IMG/VR virus record: IMGVR_UViG_3300048858_000128
Location: 1-62,635 of that record
Direction: 5' to 3' (one strand)
DNA: 62,635 nucleotides
DNA from: a virus
Lineage: Duplodnaviria; Caudoviricetes
How positions within the stretch are numbered: the first letter of the stretch is position 1; each line of letters opens with the position of its first letter. This document shows positions 2,067 through 27,263 of the stretch, one piece after another. The notes beneath the pieces are model-generated. The model was not told where the DNA came from and did no database searches. It was given only the letters and a program-made list of their open reading frames with translations. The translations under genes and the position numbers were made by a program.

Positions 2067-3167
2067 ATGGCCCCCACGACAGTCCCCTTCGGCTCCCCTC
2101 TCGCCGTCAAAAAGTGGTCCGGCAGCCTCATGGTCGACACCATGCGGAAGAGCTATTGGGACCGCAAGTTCATCGGCGAAAGCGACGAATACGCGATCCA
2201 GCGGCTCACCGACCTCGAATCCGATGCCGGCGACACCATCACCTTCGACCTTTCCGTCCAGCTCCGCGCCAAGCCGACTTATGGTGACCAGCGCCTGCAG
2301 GGCAAGGAAGAGAACCTTCGTTTCTTCTCGGACGAGATCAAAATCGACCAGATGAGGCACGGCGTCTCCGCCGGCGGCAAGATGAGCCGCAAGCGCACCA
2401 CGCACAACATCCGAAAGATCGGCAAGGACCGCCTCTCGGATTACTGGTCCAAGTTCACCGACCAGATGATTTTCATCTACACCGCCGGCGCGCGTGGCAT
2501 GAATGAAAACTTCATCGAGTCGACGGATTGGACCGGCCACGCCACCAACCCGATCCAGGCTCCCGACACCGACCATATCCTCTATGGCGGCGACGCGACC
2601 AGCAAGGGCTCCATCGACGCCGCCGACAAGATGACCAAGGCGACGATCGAGAAGGCCGGCGTCAAGGCGAGCATGATGGCCGCCACCACTCCGGAAAATG
2701 CCCAGATGATGCCGCTGATGATCAATGGCGAGAGCCATTACGTCTGCGTCATGAGCAAGTTCCAGGCTCACGATATGCGCACCGCCGATACCAGCGGCTG
2801 GCTGGAAATCCAGAAGGCGCTCATCACGGCGGAAGGCAAGAACACCCCAATCTTCAAGGGTGGCCTCGGCATGATCAACAACACCGTCCTGCATGAGCAT
2901 GAGGACGTAATCCGCTTCTCGGATTACGGCGCCGGCAACAACGTCGCGGCCGCTCGCGCTCTCTTCATGGGCCGCCAGGCTGCCGTTATTGCCTTCGGCT
3001 CCACGGGGGGCTTCCGCTTCTCTTGGACGGAAGAGATGCAGGACCACGGCAACGAGCCGGTGATCTCGGCCGGCCTGATCGTGGGCGTCAAGAAGACCCG
3101 GTTCAATAGCCGCGACTTCGGCGTCCTCGCTCTGGACACCGCCGCAAAAGATCCCAACGCACCCTAA
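2067..3167 (+). CDS. Major capsid protein, N4-gp56 family
   Basis: LESDAGDTITFDL, GKEENL, IDQMRHGV, IFKGGLGMINNTVLHEH, LFMGRQA motifs; CAGGAG RBS. Confidence 0.92.
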   Translation: MAPTTVPFGSPLAVKKWSGSLMVDTMRKSYWDRKFIGESDEYAIQRLTDLESDAGDTITFDLSVQLRAKPTYGDQRLQGKEENLRFFSDEIKIDQMRHGVSAGGKMSRKRTTHNIRKIGKDRLSDYWSKFTDQMIFIYTAGARGMNENFIESTDWTGHATNPIQAPDTDHILYGGDATSKGSIDAADKMTKATIEKAGVKASMMAATTPENAQMMPLMINGESHYVCVMSKFQAHDMRTADTSGWLEIQKALITAEGKNTPIFKGGLGMINNTVLHEHEDVIRFSDYGAGNNVAAARALFMGRQAAVIAFGSTGGFRFSWTEEMQDHGNEPVISAGLIVGVKKTRFNSRDFGVLALDTAAKDPNAP

Positions 3168-18066: not shown

Positions 18067-18258
18067 TCAATGCCGCACGAGCACCCGCACTTCGTGTTCC
18101 GCGGCGTAGAAGAAGGGCTCCGACCGGTTCATGGACACGCACAGCGGAACCCCGTCCTCGTCGAACAGCACCCAGAACTCCCTCCCCTCCTGCAACTGCG
18201 GGCGGATGTAGCCGATAGTCTCCGGCCACTCACCACCCGGATCATCGCCGTTGATCAA
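18067..18258 (-). CDS. DUF1150-like small protein
   Basis: VLFDEDGVPL...R..FFYAAEHE...VRH C-terminal pattern. Confidence 0.55.
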   Translation of the reverse strand: MINGDDPGGEWPETIGYIRPQLQEGREFWVLFDEDGVPLCVSMNRSEPFFYAAEHEVRVLVRH

Positions 18259-21200
18259 TAAACCCGCTCCGGCAATTGCTTCCTGAGCTGCTGCCCCAGC
18301 GCCTCGTTCTGGATCAGCGCACCGTCCTCACGCTTGACCCTGTTCTTCGCCCGGGTAGAGAGCGATCGCTTCAACGTCTCGCTGGTGATCGCGACCGGCC
18401 TGTGGGCGGGATTGGTATTGAACTTCCTGATTTCCTCAAAGGCGGCGGCCCGTGCCTCCGGATCCTTGTCTTCAACGGCTTTCGCGAACGAATTGATCGC
18501 CGATCGCCTGGCGTCATTGATCTTCGCCTCGGCATTCTTCAGGGCGCTTGCGCGATCGTATGTCTCCGAAATCTTCGCCGGTGTGAACCCAAGGCTCTGG
18601 CTGATCAGATTGCTGGTTGAAAGTTCACCCGGAGCCACGACCTCGTCGCCGGCACGAGTGGTCACGCCATCCCATGCGAAGCGCCATGTTTTCATCAGAT
18701 CGCGAACCGCCTTTGGAGCAGCGATCTCAATCCCGCGAGCGACACTGCTATCGTCCGTGGTGACCTTATAGGCCTCGAACATGCTGCCTATCATGCTCAC
18801 ACCAGCACCCAGGGAGTTGAGGACGTAATATTCCCACTCGGCCTTTCCTTCGAGATCCCTGTCAGGACTTCTAAACCAGAGATCTGGCATTCCGATCCGC
18901 GCCGTCAGGTCGATGCCGAGATAATGGCCAGGAGCTCCGTAAAGGAAAATGCCGCCCAACTCCGGGCCGAGCGTCCTGATCACGCCAGCCTTGAATCGAT
19001 CTTCCATCGACATTGGATCGTCGTCGTCGCCGAAGATGCCGGATAGCAGGCTGGCGGCCGCCATCGCCAGCCCATACCCCACGGTACCTGTTGCCCCTGC
19101 CATCAGTCCCATCATGCCGACGGTGCCGGCGAGCTGCGTCACCGCTTCACGCCTGGCCTGGCGGCTTTCGCCCTTCACCGCCTGATGAACGTCCCGGAAG
19201 AGCCTGTAGAGCATGTTCACCTGGTACGACCTAAACATCAGCGTAAACTTGAACTCGGGGCGCTGCATGATCCGTGGGCGAGAGCTGTTGGTCATGTCAA
19301 AATGCGTAGAATAGGTCCGCTCATGGGCGACGTTGATAGCGTCGAGATGATCATAGCCGGCATCCCGCGCCAGCCGATAAGCAGCCAGGGCTGTAACGGA
19401 CCGGTTAAACACCTCGACGTTATGGAAGCCCCAGCTCGCCGCTCTCATCACCTTGGCCCGTATCGGATCGTAGGTGGTGCCTGTTTCTGAAACGGCAGCG
19501 AGATCGTGGCTCTGGGTCCGATCGATTAAGCCGGATTCGTAGAACGCATCCATCGCTGCCTTCTCTTCGCGCGACAGGCCGCCTTTCTTCAAGTCTCCCC
19601 TGCCCACCGCAAATTCCCGGGAAGCTGTCAGCAACGCTGCAGCCGATTTTCCTATCCCGAACTTCGCGCCGAGCAGTGGCACCCCCATCATCCAGGTCTG
19701 GGAGGCGTTCACGATGGCAGCAGCGGGGCTGAAGCCCATGTACCAGATGAAGGCGGCGCTGTTGGCGTAGTTCACGAAGGCGTTGCCGCCCGGGTTTCTG
19801 ACCCACTTGTCCCGAAGATTCAACTCATTGACCAGAGCCATTTCCCGGGTGTTGTCCTCGAAATCCTTGGCCTGCTCTTCTGCGCGGTTGACGTTCTCCT
19901 GGAGCTCAAGCCCGTATTTCAGACGGCCCATCTGGTGAGCGCCGTGGAACATGGCGCTGCCGAAGGCCCGAAAAGCGTCCTTGTTGAAGCCGGCAATGCC
20001 TTTGCGGTGAATGAAGCGCTTCCGCATGGACAGGTCAGGGAAGGTCGTTAGCCAACGCTGATAAAGAGCGTCGCGCACGTCGTCACCAACTCCTGAATCG
20101 GCGAGGAGCCTCTCGATGTCGCCGACAACACGGGGATCCATCACCTTACGGATCTCGCCGTTCTTCGACATGCGGCCGGTCTCAATTTCGGCACCGTTGA
20201 TCTCTCGAGAGACCTCCTTCAAGACACGATTGGCATCCGCCTTGGTCTCATGTCGGGAAAAATGCAGGACGTCGCTGCCGGTAATCTTTCCGTCGGCGTC
20301 GCGGATCGGTCGCCGGGCGGTGACGTAGTAATCTCCGAAGCGCGATAGGGGGAAATATGGGGGGGCGACACGGTTGCTCTCGAATTGCTGGCGCAGCCGC
20401 GTCATGCGCGCCTTCGATGCCCACTGTCCCTTGGTCCGTTCAGCCTTGTATTTGCTGGCCGCGTTCTCTTCAGCCCGCCGCCGGGCGACAGGATCGATGG
20501 CGCTCGCGGCGATATCAGCCAGTTCCTCTTTGTAACGCCGCTCGGCATGCTGCGCGGCCAGCTCCTGCGCCTTCCGAACATTGTCGAGCAGCAGTTCGTC
20601 GAGCTCGTCGGCCTGCTCGCGATAGGCATCCCGCACGCCTTGGAAAAGCTCGCGGCCAACGGGCGGCAACGCGGTGAATTTTTTCCGGAGCGCCTGATAG
20701 CCAGATTTGGCCTTCTCTTCATCAGTGGTCAACGATGGATCGATCCCAGCCAAGGTGGCTTCGTGCATCAGGTCGGCCAGTTCTGCGGCCCGTGACTTAT
20801 CCACCAGCGCGGCACCGACACCGTAGCCTCGCCGGTAGCCGAGACTGATGTATTTCCGCCAACGGTCGGCGAGCGCCGCTGCAGCGTCATGCTTCTTGCC
20901 GCGGTAGGCATCCATCTTGCGTTTCACGAGGAGGTAATCCGAAATAGCCGGGATCTTGTCGCCGGCGAGTTCGGGGAAGTAATTGAGGGGAACAGCAGCG
21001 AGGAGACCGGGCTGCGCGTCGTGGAACTTGCCAGATAGGGCATCCTTCACCCGACCGACAATATTTTCCTTCGTCGCGGCAGCGGGCGCGAAGTCGCGGT
21101 CTACTTCTTTCCAGAGGCGCTTTTCTGCCTGATCATCTCGCGCGCCTCCTTCAGATAAGCCGTCCTTTCCGGATCCGGCTCCCAGTTGCTGACGGACTTC

Positions 21201-24200
21201 TCCCACTCCTTCCACTGCTCGAGTGGAGCCCACTCCGTCGGTGGATCGACGAACCCGCGCACTTGATTTTCCGCCATCACTGTACTCCTTCGCCAAGCCG
21301 AGCGCGGCGCGATCAATGGCTTCCTTCAGCCCTTTGATCTCGGCAGGATCATATGCCGCATCAGATTTCATGTCGATGATGCCGGCCCGCGCGGCGAGCA
21401 GGCTTGGAATATGCCGAGCCGCAATATCCGCACCCTCCGGATCGATCCGCCGGGCCCGTTCTGCGGCCCTCACAACATCCTTTGGGGACATAGCCGCGGT
21501 CTCAAGAGCGGCCTGCAGTTCACGCGCTGAGGTGCCGGAACCTCCGTCTGTTATCCTGGCACGGGCGACCGGCGTCAGAGCCGCTCGCGCTGATGAGCCG
21601 TTGTGCCCGAATGCCCAGACCGAGTGGACGCCCGGCATGGAGAGAAGGCCGATGTCTGGTGCGCTCAGCGGCCCGTTCCGAGGATGATTGTGGAACATGA
21701 CAAGCCGCCGGTCCGGATTCGACATCGCCGAGAAGAGCCTGTCGTTCATGCCGGTATAGCTGGGATCGCCTGCCGTGCCGTAGCTCACGACGGTACCATC
21801 GGCATCGACAGCCATGAGATACTCGTGACCCTTCTGTTTTCCGGCGGTAACCACGCTGTCCCTCGCCCAATCATTGAGGCGCACGCCTTCTGGCCGTGCC
21901 GGCGGGTCTAGTTCCCTCAGATCGTTGCGCGTCACTCTGATCTTGGGATCAGGCCGGCGCTGATCAGGGCTCGTGGCCGAGGCGTCTTCGTACGGCTCGG
22001 CAAAACCGTTCTCCTCGGCAGGAGGCAGGGCCGGAGCCTTCCGGGATTCGACTTCCGCGGATTGCGGTGCTATCGTTTCTTCTGCTCGTGGCGGGGTTGG
22101 CGCAGCCTGGTCGCCCCACAAGTCGCTGAGACGGCGTGAACTTCTTTCAGTGCGCCGCGAGCCCTTTTCGAAAGCAGTCAGCAGCCAGGTTTTCGCGGTA
22201 CCGTCAAAATCAAGACGAATACCGGCATTGCCGCTTTCGTCACGGAGCTGGATGCGTTTGGTGGTACTGCGATCTTTATCAACGTGAAGCCGATTGATGA
22301 AACCCTGGAGATCGCCAAGCACCTCCGGGTGCCAGGCCAAAAGCTTGGCCAGACCCGCCCCGTTGCTCGCGTTTGTGCCGGCGTTGCCCCAGACGAGATC
22401 AATCGGTCCCACGTCAGGATGGTTGAGAGCGCCGATGGCATCGCCAGTCTGCCTCTTCTCGAGCTCTAACGCTGCCTCTCTCCACCTGCCTTCGAAGCCC
22501 CGAAGAATGGGGCCGAAGGGGCCCGAAGCCACTTCCTCTTCAGACGTCGTTTCAAGAGCGACCGAAGAAGGTTTTATAGGTGAAGCGTCGTTGTCTAGAC
22601 CGTCTGCCGGTTCTTCAAGGCCGCCAGGAGACGAAGATTTCCGGCTATCCTCCGCATCTCCTGAGCGTCCGTTTCGCTCACCGTCTCCGCCCTCTTCAAC
22701 CAGGCCTCTGACCGGCTCTTGAGTTCCTGCGAGCTCGTCGCCGAAGAATGGGATACTGCTTTGTTTTCCATCAACAACGGGCTCCGGTGGACGATCGCTG
22801 AGGCTAGCTTCAAATTTAGCTTCGTCCTCTAGTACGGCACGGTCGAACGCATCTAGCGGCGACAGATCTTCTTCTACCATGTACTCCGCTGCGCGAGCAA
22901 GAACGGCCTCATCGACCGCGAAGTCGCCGCCTAAGTCGCTCAAGGTCGCCGCGATCTCACGCACAAATCGTTGATAGTCTGCTCGGCCGGCCAACTGAGC
23001 CTCGTACTCTTCCGAAGCCCGCAGTAGATCAGAATCGGCTAGTGAATACGCTTTTCCGCCACGGGCTTCTTGATCGATGAGGTCGAGTAGATCTCTCACG
23101 GTGCTTTTCGCGGTCGCATCGTCAGCGGTGCCATAGAGATGATCAAAGTAACCCGCCTGAGCCGCAGCTTCGCGTGCTTTATCCAGCGGTACTCCGCCTG
23201 ACCTGACTAGGGCTCCTCGTCCCGGCACAAACCTCCGCTTGAGGCCCATGTGTGCCAGTTCACCACCGTCGTCCCTCAGTCCGCCCTCTGCGGCAAGGAA
23301 ATCGAAGAGGCTCTGGGGGCGCCGAGCGCGCTTAGCTATTCGGGGTTTCGACGATCGCGTACCAGGACGCTCTCCAGCAAAGCGTGCATTCGTCGTTTTG
23401 TCCCTCGAACCATCGGCCATTTTTGAGAACGGCTCTGTGGTTTTGCCCGACTTCAGCCAGGCCTTGAAATCGCCCATCGTGGTCGGGCTGACATCGCCAA
23501 GCCCCTTCCACCCGGCGGTGTAGTTTTCGAGATATGCCGCCCGCGCAGCAGCTTCCGTGTCGAAGCCTATCATCACCTTGTGCTCGTCAAACCGGCCGTT
23601 GGCGCTGCGTTGATCGACGACGAACACAGGTGCGCTGTCGTCGAGCTCGGGCGTGCCCGGACGGATGAAGGTGTCGATGTGGTCTTTGTCGCGGCCGACG
23701 GTGCCGCGGATGTAGCCGTAGTGGCTGCGCATCTTCACCGACCACGGCTTGCCGCTCGAATCTGTGCCTTTCCGCTCGGAGCCGGCTGGGTTCTCGATCG
23801 AGAGATCGAGACCAGCGAGGCGCATGCGGCCAACCTTGTAGTTTCCAGCCTCCTTCTGCGCCTGCGTCGGCTCCGGCAGATCATTGGTCGGCGACGTCGC
23901 AGCATCGTGGACGGCGAAGTCCGCGCCCACTTCGCTGGTGTCCCGCGCCGGCCGGGTAGCAGCCAGCTTGTTCCGGATCGCCGGCGTGAGGTGCTGCCAC
24001 ATCACGCGCTCGGAGCGCTTCACGCCCGCCTGGTCAAGAACCTGCTTGCGGCCCTGCGCGGTCAGCTCGACGTCCCACCAGTGCGACAGATCGTCGGCCC
24101 TGTCCGTCGCCTCCGGCTGCTGCTTTGCAAGCTCGTTTTGCCACTGGCGGAGACGACGCTCGTTGACCGGGGGCATTTTCACAGGGAGCTTCGACCGGGC

Positions 24201-27200
24201 TTCCTTGCCTGCCCGTTCGACTCGGTACCGGTAATCGTCCGCCATCGCGCCGAGTGCCGTGGTGGTTACGCCGAACTCCCGCGCGAGCCGCTTGAGCTCC
24301 GGGTTATCGACGCTCTCCATATCGAGCTGGGAGGCGCCGAGCGTCTTCTTCGACACGAACCGCTCACGGGCAAGGTCGAACAGCCGAGCGTGCTTCTCGT
24401 CCGGCAGCTCGACGGTCTTGTCGCCAACGCGCCGGCGGGTCGGCGTCATCTCCGCCGCCTCACGCTCTACAGGGGGGGTGCGCTTCAGTTCGTCAGCTTC
24501 GACCTGCTTTTCGGTCTGATTGCTGATGAACAGGCTATCCGCCGGCACCTGGTATTCCCTGCCGGCTTCATCTTTGACGACGGCTTCCTGCCCGCCATCG
24601 GTCCATGTGCTGATCGTGGCCGCGAACCGGCCGCCGTTCTTGTCGTCGACAATGACGCGCTGCCCTGCTTCGGGCGCCGTCGGGAACCGTTCGGTGGCCG
24701 GCTTCTGCTGATCGCGCGGAGGAAGTCCCTCACTGGTGACTTCCGTCCCGATCGGCGCCAACGGTTCAAGCGCCGGATCATTCGAGAACTCGGGCAGGCT
24801 GTCGTCGATCGGCACCGGGCCGACGTCGCGCGGGTTTTCACGCTCGATAGTCTCGGCAGATTTGGCAATCTGGGTCAGATTGCCGATCGGGATCTGGTAG
24901 ATTTCGCCGCTGCCGCTGTCGATCACAACGGCCTCGTCGCCCTCGTAGCCATCGATCCGGCCCATGAAGGGCTCGATACCGTCGGCATCTATGCGCACCG
25001 TCGCGCCCACCTCGGGGCGGCCGTCGGTCGGCGCCGGCGCCGCGGGTGCCACCTGTGGGGTTCTCACGGCGATGGCCTCATCGGCACGCTGGACAGCGCG
25101 GCTGATTGGCCCGGCTGGCTGGGGCGCCGGTGCCGCGGTACCGGGATCAACGCCCGGGATGGATTCGGGGGAGGCTGGACGCGCTGCGCCGCCCGCTCCG
25201 CCCATGGCACCGCCCATCGCGCCGCCTGCTGCGATGCCCGATGCTACTGCCTCCCCCACGCCCTCTGTCAGGGATTGGTTCGGATCAACCCTCTGAACAG
25301 CGGCGTTCTCCGAAATTGCCTGCGCGGCACCTTGGGGCGCCTCTTCCAGGATGCCCTCTGCGACGGCACCGCGGACGCCACCGGCCACAATACGACGCGC
25401 GACGCCACCGCCGACACCTTCGGCGATGATCTTCGCCAGCGCCCGGTCACCCAAGCCGCCGAACATGCCGGTGGCCACGCCCGAGATAAGGAACGCCTGG
25501 CTCGCTGCATCTTCGCTGACGGCCTTGATCGCGTCGCCTTCGGACATGCCGCCTTCGATCATGGACCTGACGGCATCGGACTGCATGAGCTGGTCGCGCG
25601 GCAGAGCAGCGATGCGATCGCGGACGTTCTTCGCCGAATCGCCGGCCGCCATGCCGCCTTCGAGGATCGCGCCGCTGAGTGTGGCGGTGCGGGCAGCCGT
25701 AGCGGCCGCGGCTCTCTGCGTTGCGCCGCCGGCGATCGCCCTGACGTATGCGCCTCGAGCGAGGATGCCGCCGGGCAGCATCGTAACGACGGTACCGGGC
25801 GCGCTCTCGCCGACGGCGCGCAGATAGCTGCGGGGGTCGCGCCAGGCTGGACCAAACCAGCCGCGATCCTCGTCCCACCAGTTTTTGGCGTCCGCATCGG
25901 CCTGTGCTGGCGTGACGGATGCGCGGGCTGCCGTGTCCGCATTCTCCATCTTCTTGTCGAGCGTGTTACCCAACACCCAGCGGTCGATGTCGTCGGAAGC
26001 CTTGAGGAAGGTCTCGCCGCCGGGAAGCCTGCTGAACACGGTATCAGCGATCGAGGAGAGGGACTGGCCGATTCCGATGACACCGGATTTCAGGATGCGG
26101 CCCGTATCGCCGAGCACGCCGGACGAGCGGTTCGCTTCCTCCCACCTCGCTTGCCAGTCTGGCAGCTGGTCCTCGTCGATGGTCTGGTACCGGCCGGGGT
26201 TCTCCGCCTCGAGCACCGCGGCGCGCTGACCGACGTCGTCGTTATGCCGTTCGGTGAAGGCGTTGTTCCGGTTCTCTTCGAACTGGTTGGCAACCGCTTC
26301 CTTGGTGGCTGCGGCCTTCGCGGCCTGCTCGGCGGCCATCGTGGCGAATGGGTTTTCGGCGGTGCCGAAGACACCTAGGCCGTCGGCGGGCTTGAACGTC
26401 TCATCTATAACAATCGAACCGGCGCCTGCCGATCCACTCGATGAAGCCCTTGCACGGGAGTTCGGCGCGGAAACGATCGGGTCAACATAGGCCGTGGCCG
26501 CCGAACTGGGCGTTTCCCCCTGCCGTACAACGCCGCCGACGATCTCCCGCCCTGGTCGGAAGCCCTCAACACGCTCCATCGCGTCAAGGACGGCGACCCG
26601 TTGCCGGGCACTGAGCTCTGCCAGCGGGGTATCGATGCTGACGCCCGCGGCGGTCGCGACGGACGAGGCGTAGGAGTCGGTATTGTTTTCGCTCGGCGGG
26701 GCATACCGCGAAATGGCCTGATAGATCGTCTTGTCCCGATAGCCCTTGCTGTCGAATAACAGGCTCTCCTTCGCGCGCCGGCCTGCCTCATAGGTTGGGA
26801 AGACGGCGAACCGTCCGTCCGTGCCGATAGCGCCCAAGCCCTTTGCAAACTGCCCGTACTCAATGTTGCCGGGGTTGTTGTTGCGCCACGCACGGGTGCC
26901 CTTACGCCTGATAACCTCGCCGTCGGCGCCGACGACTTCGGTCCAGCCTTTTCCAGCCGCGACAACCGTTGAGTACCCAGCGGTGTTTACCTCCGGGGTT
27001 TCCGGCTTCAAGATCGCATCAAAGGGACTTTCCCGGGCCGGCTCTGTGGTGACTTCTGAACTCTGGTCCGCCGGGCGGGTGCGAGGCGCCGCGTCAACCG
27101 AAGGGCTCTCTACGGGCTTTGCCGTCGCCTCCGCTGCATCAGACGCGGCCGAGGACGTGGCTGGATTAATCCCAACAGCCTTTTCGCTCGAAGCCTTGTC

Positions 27201-27263
27201 GCCGAACAGGTTCAGCGGGTCTTTGAGGTCGAAATCTTTGCCGAGGCCGATGATGATGGGCAT
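18255..27263 (-). CDS. Giant polyvalent / DarB-like virion protein (3002 aa): lysozyme-like, inorganic-pyrophosphatase-like, PBECR-type RNase, JAB-like and PLxRFG regions
   Basis: WRNNNPGNI (~26850-26890); GNYK...IENPAGSER..HYGYIRGT.G.DKDHID (~23430-23900); IDLVWG...GLAKL...WLLTAFE (~22165-22520); HE...HNHP...S.PD (~21580-21870); YFPLSRFG (~20340); AAGGAG RBS. Confidence 0.88.
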   Translation of the reverse strand: MPIIIGLGKDFDLKDPLNLFGDKASSEKAVGINPATSSAASDAAEATAKPVESPSVDAAPRTRPADQSSEVTTEPARESPFDAILKPETPEVNTAGYSTVVAAGKGWTEVVGADGEVIRRKGTRAWRNNNPGNIEYGQFAKGLGAIGTDGRFAVFPTYEAGRRAKESLLFDSKGYRDKTIYQAISRYAPPSENNTDSYASSVATAAGVSIDTPLAELSARQRVAVLDAMERVEGFRPGREIVGGVVRQGETPSSAATAYVDPIVSAPNSRARASSSGSAGAGSIVIDETFKPADGLGVFGTAENPFATMAAEQAAKAAATKEAVANQFEENRNNAFTERHNDDVGQRAAVLEAENPGRYQTIDEDQLPDWQARWEEANRSSGVLGDTGRILKSGVIGIGQSLSSIADTVFSRLPGGETFLKASDDIDRWVLGNTLDKKMENADTAARASVTPAQADADAKNWWDEDRGWFGPAWRDPRSYLRAVGESAPGTVVTMLPGGILARGAYVRAIAGGATQRAAAATAARTATLSGAILEGGMAAGDSAKNVRDRIAALPRDQLMQSDAVRSMIEGGMSEGDAIKAVSEDAASQAFLISGVATGMFGGLGDRALAKIIAEGVGGGVARRIVAGGVRGAVAEGILEEAPQGAAQAISENAAVQRVDPNQSLTEGVGEAVASGIAAGGAMGGAMGGAGGAARPASPESIPGVDPGTAAPAPQPAGPISRAVQRADEAIAVRTPQVAPAAPAPTDGRPEVGATVRIDADGIEPFMGRIDGYEGDEAVVIDSGSGEIYQIPIGNLTQIAKSAETIERENPRDVGPVPIDDSLPEFSNDPALEPLAPIGTEVTSEGLPPRDQQKPATERFPTAPEAGQRVIVDDKNGGRFAATISTWTDGGQEAVVKDEAGREYQVPADSLFISNQTEKQVEADELKRTPPVEREAAEMTPTRRRVGDKTVELPDEKHARLFDLARERFVSKKTLGASQLDMESVDNPELKRLAREFGVTTTALGAMADDYRYRVERAGKEARSKLPVKMPPVNERRLRQWQNELAKQQPEATDRADDLSHWWDVELTAQGRKQVLDQAGVKRSERVMWQHLTPAIRNKLAATRPARDTSEVGADFAVHDAATSPTNDLPEPTQAQKEAGNYKVGRMRLAGLDLSIENPAGSERKGTDSSGKPWSVKMRSHYGYIRGTVGRDKDHIDTFIRPGTPELDDSAPVFVVDQRSANGRFDEHKVMIGFDTEAAARAAYLENYTAGWKGLGDVSPTTMGDFKAWLKSGKTTEPFSKMADGSRDKTTNARFAGERPGTRSSKPRIAKRARRPQSLFDFLAAEGGLRDDGGELAHMGLKRRFVPGRGALVRSGGVPLDKAREAAAQAGYFDHLYGTADDATAKSTVRDLLDLIDQEARGGKAYSLADSDLLRASEEYEAQLAGRADYQRFVREIAATLSDLGGDFAVDEAVLARAAEYMVEEDLSPLDAFDRAVLEDEAKFEASLSDRPPEPVVDGKQSSIPFFGDELAGTQEPVRGLVEEGGDGERNGRSGDAEDSRKSSSPGGLEEPADGLDNDASPIKPSSVALETTSEEEVASGPFGPILRGFEGRWREAALELEKRQTGDAIGALNHPDVGPIDLVWGNAGTNASNGAGLAKLLAWHPEVLGDLQGFINRLHVDKDRSTTKRIQLRDESGNAGIRLDFDGTAKTWLLTAFEKGSRRTERSSRRLSDLWGDQAAPTPPRAEETIAPQSAEVESRKAPALPPAEENGFAEPYEDASATSPDQRRPDPKIRVTRNDLRELDPPARPEGVRLNDWARDSVVTAGKQKGHEYLMAVDADGTVVSYGTAGDPSYTGMNDRLFSAMSNPDRRLVMFHNHPRNGPLSAPDIGLLSMPGVHSVWAFGHNGSSARAALTPVARARITDGGSGTSARELQAALETAAMSPKDVVRAAERARRIDPEGADIAARHIPSLLAARAGIIDMKSDAAYDPAEIKGLKEAIDRAALGLAKEYSDGGKSSARVRRSTDGVGSTRAVEGVGEVRQQLGAGSGKDGLSEGGARDDQAEKRLWKEVDRDFAPAAATKENIVGRVKDALSGKFHDAQPGLLAAVPLNYFPELAGDKIPAISDYLLVKRKMDAYRGKKHDAAAALADRWRKYISLGYRRGYGVGAALVDKSRAAELADLMHEATLAGIDPSLTTDEEKAKSGYQALRKKFTALPPVGRELFQGVRDAYREQADELDELLLDNVRKAQELAAQHAERRYKEELADIAASAIDPVARRRAEENAASKYKAERTKGQWASKARMTRLRQQFESNRVAPPYFPLSRFGDYYVTARRPIRDADGKITGSDVLHFSRHETKADANRVLKEVSREINGAEIETGRMSKNGEIRKVMDPRVVGDIERLLADSGVGDDVRDALYQRWLTTFPDLSMRKRFIHRKGIAGFNKDAFRAFGSAMFHGAHQMGRLKYGLELQENVNRAEEQAKDFEDNTREMALVNELNLRDKWVRNPGGNAFVNYANSAAFIWYMGFSPAAAIVNASQTWMMGVPLLGAKFGIGKSAAALLTASREFAVGRGDLKKGGLSREEKAAMDAFYESGLIDRTQSHDLAAVSETGTTYDPIRAKVMRAASWGFHNVEVFNRSVTALAAYRLARDAGYDHLDAINVAHERTYSTHFDMTNSSRPRIMQRPEFKFTLMFRSYQVNMLYRLFRDVHQAVKGESRQARREAVTQLAGTVGMMGLMAGATGTVGYGLAMAAASLLSGIFGDDDDPMSMEDRFKAGVIRTLGPELGGIFLYGAPGHYLGIDLTARIGMPDLWFRSPDRDLEGKAEWEYYVLNSLGAGVSMIGSMFEAYKVTTDDSSVARGIEIAAPKAVRDLMKTWRFAWDGVTTRAGDEVVAPGELSTSNLISQSLGFTPAKISETYDRASALKNAEAKINDARRSAINSFAKAVEDKDPEARAAAFEEIRKFNTNPAHRPVAITSETLKRSLSTRAKNRVKREDGALIQNEALGQQLRKQLPERVY
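21101..21277 (-). CDS. Nested 58-aa gene in the +1 frame of the giant gene (candidate immunity protein for the JAB-like domain)
   Basis: AAGGAG 7 nt before the ATG; globular-looking MAENQVRGFVDPPTEWAPLEQWKEWEK... while the host frame is a low-complexity linker. Confidence 0.7.
   Translation of the reverse strand: MAENQVRGFVDPPTEWAPLEQWKEWEKSVSNWEPDPERTAYLKEAREMIRQKSASGKK
22048..22076 (+). promoter_or_regulatory. Antisense sigma70-type promoter inside the giant gene
   Basis: TCGACT-N17-TATCGT with extended -10 TG (TGCTATCGT). Confidence 0.55.
22084..22168 (+). ncRNA. Predicted four-way-junction (tRNA-sized) antisense RNA
   Basis: 10-bp closing stem GCTCGTGGCG/CGCCGCGAGC, three internal hairpins, then CCTTTT; begins 7 nt after the -10 element. 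Confidence 0.5.
22595..22771 (-). CDS. Nested 58-aa helical gene in the +1 frame of the giant gene
   Basis: GGAG 10 nt before the ATG; amphipathic ELKSRSEAWLKRAE...EMRRIAGNLRLLAAL; host frame is a disordered linker. Confidence 0.55.
   Translation of the reverse strand: MENKAVSHSSATSSQELKSRSEAWLKRAETVSETDAQEMRRIAGNLRLLAALKNRQTV

Follow-up and report, generated by a model that had tools for sequence, protein, structure and literature searches.

Does a giant phage gene built from effector domains also carry, in a second reading frame of its linkers, small genes that act on those same domains? We examine this question in IMG/VR virus record IMGVR_UViG_3300048858_000128 (Caudoviricetes), whose whole stretch of 62,635 nucleotides (nt; hereafter, "the window") includes the gene of a 3002-amino-acid (aa) virion protein, referred to below as the host gene. 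A reading made from the sequence alone had proposed that three consecutive domains of this protein are each followed by a second layer of information: two open reading frames (ORFs) in the +1 frame, here called n1 and n2, and between them an antisense promoter with a structured RNA. Our comparison with relatives supports the two ORFs, n2 most clearly, and leaves the antisense element without support. We consider it probable that the giant gene is dual-coding at two linkers and that n2 specifies an immunity-like inhibitor of the JAB/JAMM-like domain directly ahead of it.

The positions proposed for n1 and n2 are correct, and both ORFs lie in the +1 frame of the host gene (Table 1). The ribosome-binding site claimed for n2 is likewise present, 7 nt ahead of its ATG. 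A translated search against a 51%-identical relative found a +1-frame match to n2 with 55% identity, in a stretch where the host frames aligned poorly. Searching with an n2 alignment returned 18 viral loci and 5 loci in bacterial genomes (Rhizobium and Agrobacterium), and at all 23 a very long open frame contains the n2-like ORF in its +1 frame, the ATG of that ORF occupying the same position throughout. The ATG is retained in 19 of 19 distinct relatives, and purine-rich runs of the GGAG, GAGG or AGGGA type stand 7–12 nt 5′ of it in all clades; the ORF as a whole, start and stop included, is kept in all 19.

Selection over the n2 columns acts on the nested frame. The ratio of nonsynonymous to synonymous divergence (pN/pS) is 0.50 in the n2 frame, with pN < pS in all 28 pairs of clade representatives (19 distinct DNA sequences), versus 1.37 in the host frame, where only 1 of the 28 pairs has pN < pS. 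Outside the overlap the host frame gives 0.57 in the upstream flank and 0.36 in the downstream flank, with pN < pS in 28/28 pairs on either side, and the alternative frames there exceed 1. Diversity at n2 codon positions 1, 2 and 3 is 0.24, 0.20 and 0.36; as the third n2 position is the most diverse, the first position of the host frame is its most variable. Suppressed synonymous variation in the main frame, which the sequence-only reading had named as a check, is seen here, host-frame synonymous divergence being 0.29 in the overlap versus about 0.7 in the flanks. Across n2, no stop interrupts the host frame in 19/19 sequences, an outcome reached by about 15% (2–29%) of synonymous resamplings of the same peptides, and the equivalent frame of free-standing n2 copies contains 1–6 stops in all six evaluable cases (a seventh could not be parsed). 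By these sequence comparisons, n2 is a conserved overlapping gene with purifying selection acting on its own frame.

ORF length by itself is no evidence in this gene, since its sense strand holds 45 alternative-frame ORFs of at least 40 aa (22 in +1 and 23 in +2), and tblastn matches of such ORFs are no evidence alone, because most reflect conservation of the host frame. In a gene-wide control, 25 sense alternative-frame ORFs have matches in relatives, and n1 and n2 are the only ones that combine pN/pS below 1 in their own frame with pN/pS above 1 in the host frame. The values, own versus host frame, are 0.47 versus 1.59 for n2 (39 loci, including several per contig) and 0.62 versus 1.16 for n1 (2 loci, which are a single contig fetched twice). 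Among the remaining ORFs, 22 show the opposite pattern and 1 is ambiguous. G+C content by codon position was ambiguous and was not used.

Signals for separate transcription of n2 are suggestive only. A promoter scan of the whole host gene found a single site, the promoter-like motif ahead of n2, where 1.8 were expected, and the motif is therefore not significant by itself. Its position is retained in 19/19 relatives with a freely varying spacer, and in 18 of the 19 both hexamers have at least 4/6 matches. Conserved I-D and Y-D residues account for part of this conservation; within their codon families, TAT and GAT account for 55% and 44% of usage in the giant genes examined.

Beyond the giant genes, n2 belongs to a family of mostly separate proteins of 50–80 aa. 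A 61-aa predicted protein is 72% identical to n2, and among 1.84 billion representative proteins, 55 matched in a profile search at E ≤ 1e-3. The family motif is G-[FL]-I-D-P-P-S-P-F-D-T-L-E-x-W-E-x-F-L, followed by a C-terminal A-[RK]-E-x-I-x-x-K helix. In viral contigs, 13 of 21 loci are nested in +1 within ORFs exceeding 2250 aa and 8 are free-standing; seven distinct free-standing genes overlap the stop codon of the preceding gene, which encodes a MuF-type head protein in six cases and a portal-Acb1 fusion in one. The predicted structure of n2 has two helices (predicted local distance difference test, pLDDT, 77.6), and the model has no fold match in the PDB at E ≤ 0.001. Neither Pfam nor PHROGs gave anything usable for n2 or n1, ten n2 relatives searched against Pfam fell into no family, and the ESM Atlas gave no usable match for n2 and only leads at 0.83 for n1. 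Some family members (P0006, P0007, P0010, P0029, P0031 and P0034) are made up of two or three tandem n2-like modules, and another member, P0012, has an N-terminal hydrophobic segment.

The domain that adjoins n2 carries an HNHP core. Seven of its residues (E35, H79, N80, H81, P82, S88 and D91) are invariant in 17/17 aligned sequences, as are the elements G-x-E, H-N-H-P, S-x-x-D and two glycines. The motif of JAB/JAMM (MPN+) enzymes reads Glu ... His-x-His-x7-Ser-x2-Asp. An AlphaFold2 model of the domain has a pLDDT of 95.8, and its top Foldseek matches in the PDB are JAMM deubiquitinases and RadC (AMSH-LP, Sst2, PfJAMM1, CSN5, Rpn11 and RadC), with probabilities up to 0.99. The Pfam RadC/JAB models do not match the domain in the window, and a PDB sequence search with it found nothing. 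We call it JAB/JAMM-like (JAB-like below), and not a family member, because sequence models fail to recognize it.

This domain and n2 travel together. For all seven free-standing n2 genes, the C-terminal domain of the preceding protein is homologous to residues 1784–1988 of the host protein. For the converse test, 22 loci were chosen solely by the HHNHP core of the domain, 13 of them on contigs new to the analysis, and an n2-like sequence lies directly behind the domain in 22/22 (hidden Markov model E ≤ 3.6e-9). It is a separate gene in 14, nested in the +1 frame of a continuing ORF in 7, and fused in frame in 1. Co-segregation with the upstream domain, another check named with the proposal, is therefore complete. 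The fused case (contig L086, 1501–2250) joins the n2-like module to the C-terminus of a JAB-like domain protein; it may reflect a naturally fused pair, or else a frameshift within this metagenome contig. On a further contig (L047, 1303–4008), a portal protein, the anti-CBASS (cyclic-oligonucleotide-based antiphage signaling system) protein Acb1 and the JAB-like domain form one fusion, followed by a free-standing n2-like gene; the Acb1 neighbor hints that the domain is a counter-defense effector.

Structure prediction places n2 on this domain. The modeled complex of n2 and the JAB-like domain scored 0.84 (0.84, 0.84 and 0.87 in individual runs), a value that expresses the model's own confidence, versus 0.05 for the best of three controls. 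In a calibration that is only rough for this pair, since custom alignments were used, 58 of 80 solved complexes attained the mark, as did 2 of 110 mismatched pairs. At least 89% of contacts are common to the runs, with partner pLDDT of at least 83, and recall of a known complex is unlikely because there is no solved relative by sequence. The modeled contacts join n2 residues 5–12 and 14–17 to E35, H79, H81, S88 and D91, so that the invariant N-terminal segment of n2 is predicted to occupy the catalytic residues of the domain. An active site occluded in this manner also fits a substrate or cofactor.

The evidence for n1 is of the same kind and smaller. Its claimed ribosome-binding site is present but amounts to a GGAG only. 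The upstream domain belongs to no known family, with no Pfam match and no PDB sequence match, and relatives of n1 were found once that domain was used as the query. Three contigs in which the domain is 57–61% identical (L059, L062 and L063) have a 57-aa +1 ORF aligned with n1 at both its ATG and its stop, so that start and stop positions coincide in 4/4 sequences; GAGGGA or GGGA stands 8–13 nt 5′ of the ATG in these three. Five contigs in which the domain is 41–49% identical (L060, its translation identical to that of L064; L065; L066; L067) have no counterpart of n1, and their ORFs end soon after the domain. Over n1, the n1 frame has a pN/pS of 0.69 (pN < pS in 5/6 pairs), compared with 1.06 for the host frame and 1.04 for the remaining frame. 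Here, too, the host frame shows suppressed synonymous change: in the close pair L062–L063, its pS is 0.05 in the overlap versus 0.69 upstream. From these sequence data, n1 is quite probably a real gene. The host ORFs of L059, L062 and L063 encode 744–801 aa, with the n1-like gene between the family-less domain and a short C-terminal tail; as these genes are not giant, nesting extends beyond the polyvalent giants.

At the place of n1, just ahead of a PBECR1-like domain, relatives carry an unrelated +1 ORF. PBECR1 (PF18809) matches residues 1614–1701 of the host protein at E 8.1e-5 and 23.5 bits; we use the name "PBECR1-like" only, as the score is under the Pfam gathering cut-off of 27.6 bits. 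The ORF of the relatives is TnpV-like, with a weak match to PF14198 (E 2e-4) and a strong match to the end of phrog_938; its family is about 100 aa long, begins MNL[NQ]NW, and occurs in 21 phage records. It lies in the +1 frame of an annotated giant coding sequence (CDS) in Atu_ph08, SopranoGao, VvAW1, PEp14, POI1126 and Mwe-JY07, and in the +1 frame of a giant open frame in the unannotated contig L003; no TnpV-like gene was found in the window. The carriers infect Agrobacterium, Klebsiella, Vibrio, Erwinia, Pseudomonas and Microcystis. In eight phages the ORF starts with ATG or GTG behind a GGAG-like run, its pN/pS is 0.62 in its own frame (pN < pS in 28/28 pairs) versus 1.22 in the host frame (2/28), and the host frame is open across it in 8/8. 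A third nested family, similarly placed in eight other phages, argues that nesting is a general feature of these genes. Agrobacterium phage Atu_ph08 carries both n2 and the TnpV-like gene, and a nested CDS is annotated in none of the nine phage records inspected.

Two records of this family differ in layout. In PBC5 (L034/L071), orf33 ends in the TnpV-like module, which is in frame with it, and the host-equivalent frame is likewise open across the module; the giant gene is split there, and the PBECR1-like stretch behind the module is unannotated. The split may be genuine or may stem from a frameshift in old sequencing. Pseudomonas phage Itty13 (L037) has an annotated 1153-aa CDS on the strand opposite the conserved TnpV-like ORF; the annotation may have picked the wrong strand of this G+C-rich giant gene.

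Table 1. Positions of the host gene, its nested genes and associated features in the window, and of TnpV-like loci in other phages.
Feature	Position	Strand	Basis or remark
Host gene, 3002-aa polyvalent (DarB-like) virion protein	18255..27263	minus	ORF, Pfam and PHROG
n2, 58-aa nested gene, including stop codon	21101..21277	minus	+1 frame of host gene
GAAGGAG, Shine-Dalgarno-like, 7 nt ahead of n2 ATG	21285..21291	minus	sequence inspection
Promoter-like TCGACA-N17-TATGAT, ~70 nt before n2 ATG	21348..21376	minus (sense strand)	promoter scan
JAB/JAMM-like "HNHP" domain, residues 1780-1995	21279..21926	minus	alignment and AlphaFold2; adjoins n2
PBECR1-like domain and conserved tail, residues 1577-1745	22029..22535	minus	Pfam sub-threshold match
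n1, 58-aa nested gene, including stop codon	22595..22771	minus	+1 frame of host gene
GGAG, 10 nt ahead of n1 ATG	22782..22785	minus	sequence inspection
Domain upstream of n1, no known family, residues ~1314-1500	22764..23324	minus	alignment of relatives
TnpV-like locus, contig L003	3041-3343		
TnpV-like locus, L033 (Atu_ph08)	2392-2697		
TnpV-like loci, L035, L036, L037, L068, L070, L071			

The third element of the original proposal, an antisense promoter with a structured RNA at 22048–22168 on the plus strand, was rejected. A promoter scan finds no promoter there, and the best candidate found by eye (TCGACT-17-TATCGT) has 8/12 matches and is under the scan threshold. The predicted fold of the 121 nt does not stand out from shuffled sequence (plus strand, z +0.14; minus strand, z +0.38), and Rfam has no match for them. 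In the window and 11 relatives (12 sequences), the stretch encodes a conserved host-frame peptide, with third-position variation dominant over most of it, and the host frame is under purifying selection in the PBECR1-like domain and tail. The "three consecutive domains" of the sequence-only reading therefore become two. Its description of the main frame as a disordered linker holds over n1 and n2, as judged by composition and by the relaxed evolution of the host frame there, and fails over 22048–22168, where the peptide is conserved. The idea that a domain was captured in frame together with its partner is borne out for n2, for which both a two-gene cassette and a nested +1 form exist; it is plausible for n1, which is kept with its domain in three contigs, and does not extend to the antisense layer.

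The setting of these genes is phage DNA of about 60% G+C with portal, terminase, internal virion protein and tail-fiber genes. The host protein is a polyvalent protein with several conflict-related domains, including an LPD module: Pfam matches InPase at residues 1134–1271 (E 1e-55) and LPD39 at residues 2070–2261 (E 1.7e-54), and PHROG assigns the protein to the DarB-like family. Inside LPD39, a 51-aa +1-frame ORF (about 20770–20923, minus strand) has pN/pS of 0.85 in its own and 0.88 in the host frame (2 loci). Antisense to the giant gene, a 932-aa ORF (23580–26378, plus strand) matches relatives only as the mirror of host-frame conservation and is most likely an artefact of G+C richness. 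The stretch was found in full in three soil sequencing runs, from which it may derive.

For n2, then, and less strongly for n1, comparison of relatives shows conservation, selection specific to the nested frame, and co-segregation with a domain; from here we infer separate translation, inhibition and the direction of evolution, and, from the complex model and the analogy with toxin-immunity pairs, an immunity role for n2. Both genes would be read in the +1 frame, each from its own ATG and ribosome-binding site behind its respective domain, while the host frame over them need only stay open and would act as a spacer. The n2 product would be a two-helix protein of about 58 aa whose invariant G-F-x-D-P-P segment lies across the catalytic Glu, His, His, Ser and Asp, and its most likely role would be to keep the JAB-like enzyme inactive in the producing cell. 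Such an arrangement probably arose when a cassette of a C-terminal effector domain and its downstream partner lost the stop codon of the former and was read through into the next domain.

Several points weigh against this explanation, the limits on the complex model given above among them. The JAB assignment is soft: the best Foldseek E-value is 7.7e-3 with TM-scores of 0.3–0.6, Pfam RadC matches 3 of 17 relatives with a best E of 0.015, and six residues separate the second His from the Ser, one short of the motif. The L086 fusion and the in-frame TnpV-like tail of PBC5 indicate that the modules can join a long polypeptide. Direct searches with n1 found nothing, including among predicted proteins, and when viral sequences were scanned again with the n1 alignment, the same contig came back and no other; the case for n1 depends on three further contigs, effectively three lineages, and between the window and L063 its pN is about equal to pS. 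Two metatranscriptome runs contain contigs of 207 nt (22101–22307) and 174 nt (22409–22582), which reveal neither strand, start nor level and therefore say nothing on expression.

The alternative that survives best, though we think it unlikely, is that n2 is a separately made partner and not an inhibitor: a substrate, an activating subunit, a folding or packaging chaperone, or a target-handover factor. Co-segregation and the complex model establish a partnership and not its sign. An in-frame fusion such as that in L086 would be odd for an antidote that needs to be shed, single proteins with tandem n2-like repeats exist, and the company of Acb1 in the portal fusion suggests a counter-defense enzyme that is not necessarily toxic to its producer. 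What tells against such a partner is that the modeled contacts of n2 center on catalytic residues, and that a small gene straight after a MuF C-terminal effector domain is the order described for toxin-immunity pairs in the passages of Jamet et al. 2017 (PMC5576092) considered here.

Much less probable is a mechanism in which ribosomes on the giant mRNA shift +1 into n1 or n2 and produce truncated isoforms with no independent start. Such shifting would account for every nested copy found being in the +1 frame, for the TnpV-like module of PBC5 standing in frame with the preceding 2000-residue protein, and for the in-frame n2 of L086. It leaves unexplained why the n2 ATG is kept with its ribosome-binding-like run in 19/19 relatives, and why most relatives are separate genes with their own start. 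In contig L028, moreover, a +1-frame stop lies immediately 5′ of the n2 ATG, and the first 5–10 codons of n2, then the sole possible shift site, are not conserved.

That n1 and n2 are chance ORFs of a G+C-rich gene, conserved as a by-product of the host frame, is more improbable again. The abundance of ORFs of this length on the sense strand, the many tblastn matches that arise merely since the DNA is conserved, and the small n1 sample all lend themselves to this view. At n2, however, it is the host frame that evolves like a non-coding frame, and free-standing homologues exist, so that for n2 the chance reading is already refuted; for n1, all four sequences agree in start and stop position, and the host frame shows suppressed synonymous change. 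Least probable of all is that the long ORF is several genes with the small ones merely between them and is not translated through the overlaps: free-standing arrangements do occur in other phages and the PBC5 region is annotated as two genes, but the host frame stays open over n2 in 19/19 relatives, versus about 15% expected, and over the TnpV-like ORF in 8/8 phages, and it is open throughout the translated stretches of the n1 relatives (overlap stops were not counted separately).

If n1 and n2 are dual-coded partners of their domains, the consequences reach beyond one phage. Three unrelated nested families (n1, n2 and the TnpV-like one) occur in phages of Alphaproteobacteria, Gammaproteobacteria and cyanobacteria. 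It is possible, although we hold this only tentatively, that polyvalent effector genes in general have two layers, in which, behind many of the domains, out-of-frame nested genes with their own ribosome-binding site, and some with their own promoter, make a free cognate inhibitor or regulator of the preceding domain. Were this true and the genes expressed from a prophage, the nested genes would protect the lysogen from the effectors of related incoming phages, a superinfection immunity kept inside the weapon. If linkers hide genes, gene callers systematically miss a class of small phage proteins that are likely inhibitors of injected effectors. A nested gene would also point to the domain it regulates and so help to characterize domains whose function is unknown, among them the JAB-like domain and the one before n1. 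The idea is directly testable in isolated phages, e.g., Agrobacterium phage Atu_ph08.

The arrangement resembles several known systems and departs from each. In phage lambda, the small gene Rz1 is wholly embedded in the +1 frame of Rz, and the two products cooperate. The likeness lies in a small +1-frame gene within a larger phage gene; however, Rz1 overlaps the structured part of a small gene, whereas here a spacer of a 9-kb gene is overlapped, several unrelated nested genes occur in one host gene, and the partner is the adjacent domain. With the overprinted genes of small viruses our case shares coding in both frames and suppressed synonymous change. Overprinting creates the new frame de novo, whereas here the nested frame is probably older, because free-standing relatives exist, and the host-frame spacer would be the newcomer. 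A spacer seemingly created by read-through of an older gene would be the reverse of classical overprinting.

Closer in function are the MuF toxins described by Jamet et al. 2017 (PMC5576092), where small immunity ORFs lie downstream and one unnamed domain is labeled "Ct_MAD". The free-standing relatives of n2 have the same layout, a MuF head protein with an extra C-terminal domain and a small ORF overlapping its stop; the passages considered do not name the JAB-like domain. In the window, by contrast, the small gene lies inside the effector gene and out of frame, and the host ORF continues for 1000 residues. The host gene, for its part, is a mosaic of conflict domains with LPD39, InPase and PBECR1-like modules, like the polyvalent proteins described by Iyer et al. 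2017 (PMC5512222), who list RadC-type JAB domains among the components. In the portion of that text considered here, linkers are spacers only, and the words "overlapping", "frameshift" and "TnpV" appear nowhere. No report of genes nested inside polyvalent or DarB-like genes came up in a literature search whose coverage excluded most subscription journals. Overlapping phage genes, effector-immunity cassettes and polyvalent proteins are each of a known kind, and it is their combination in one gene that appears here to be general.

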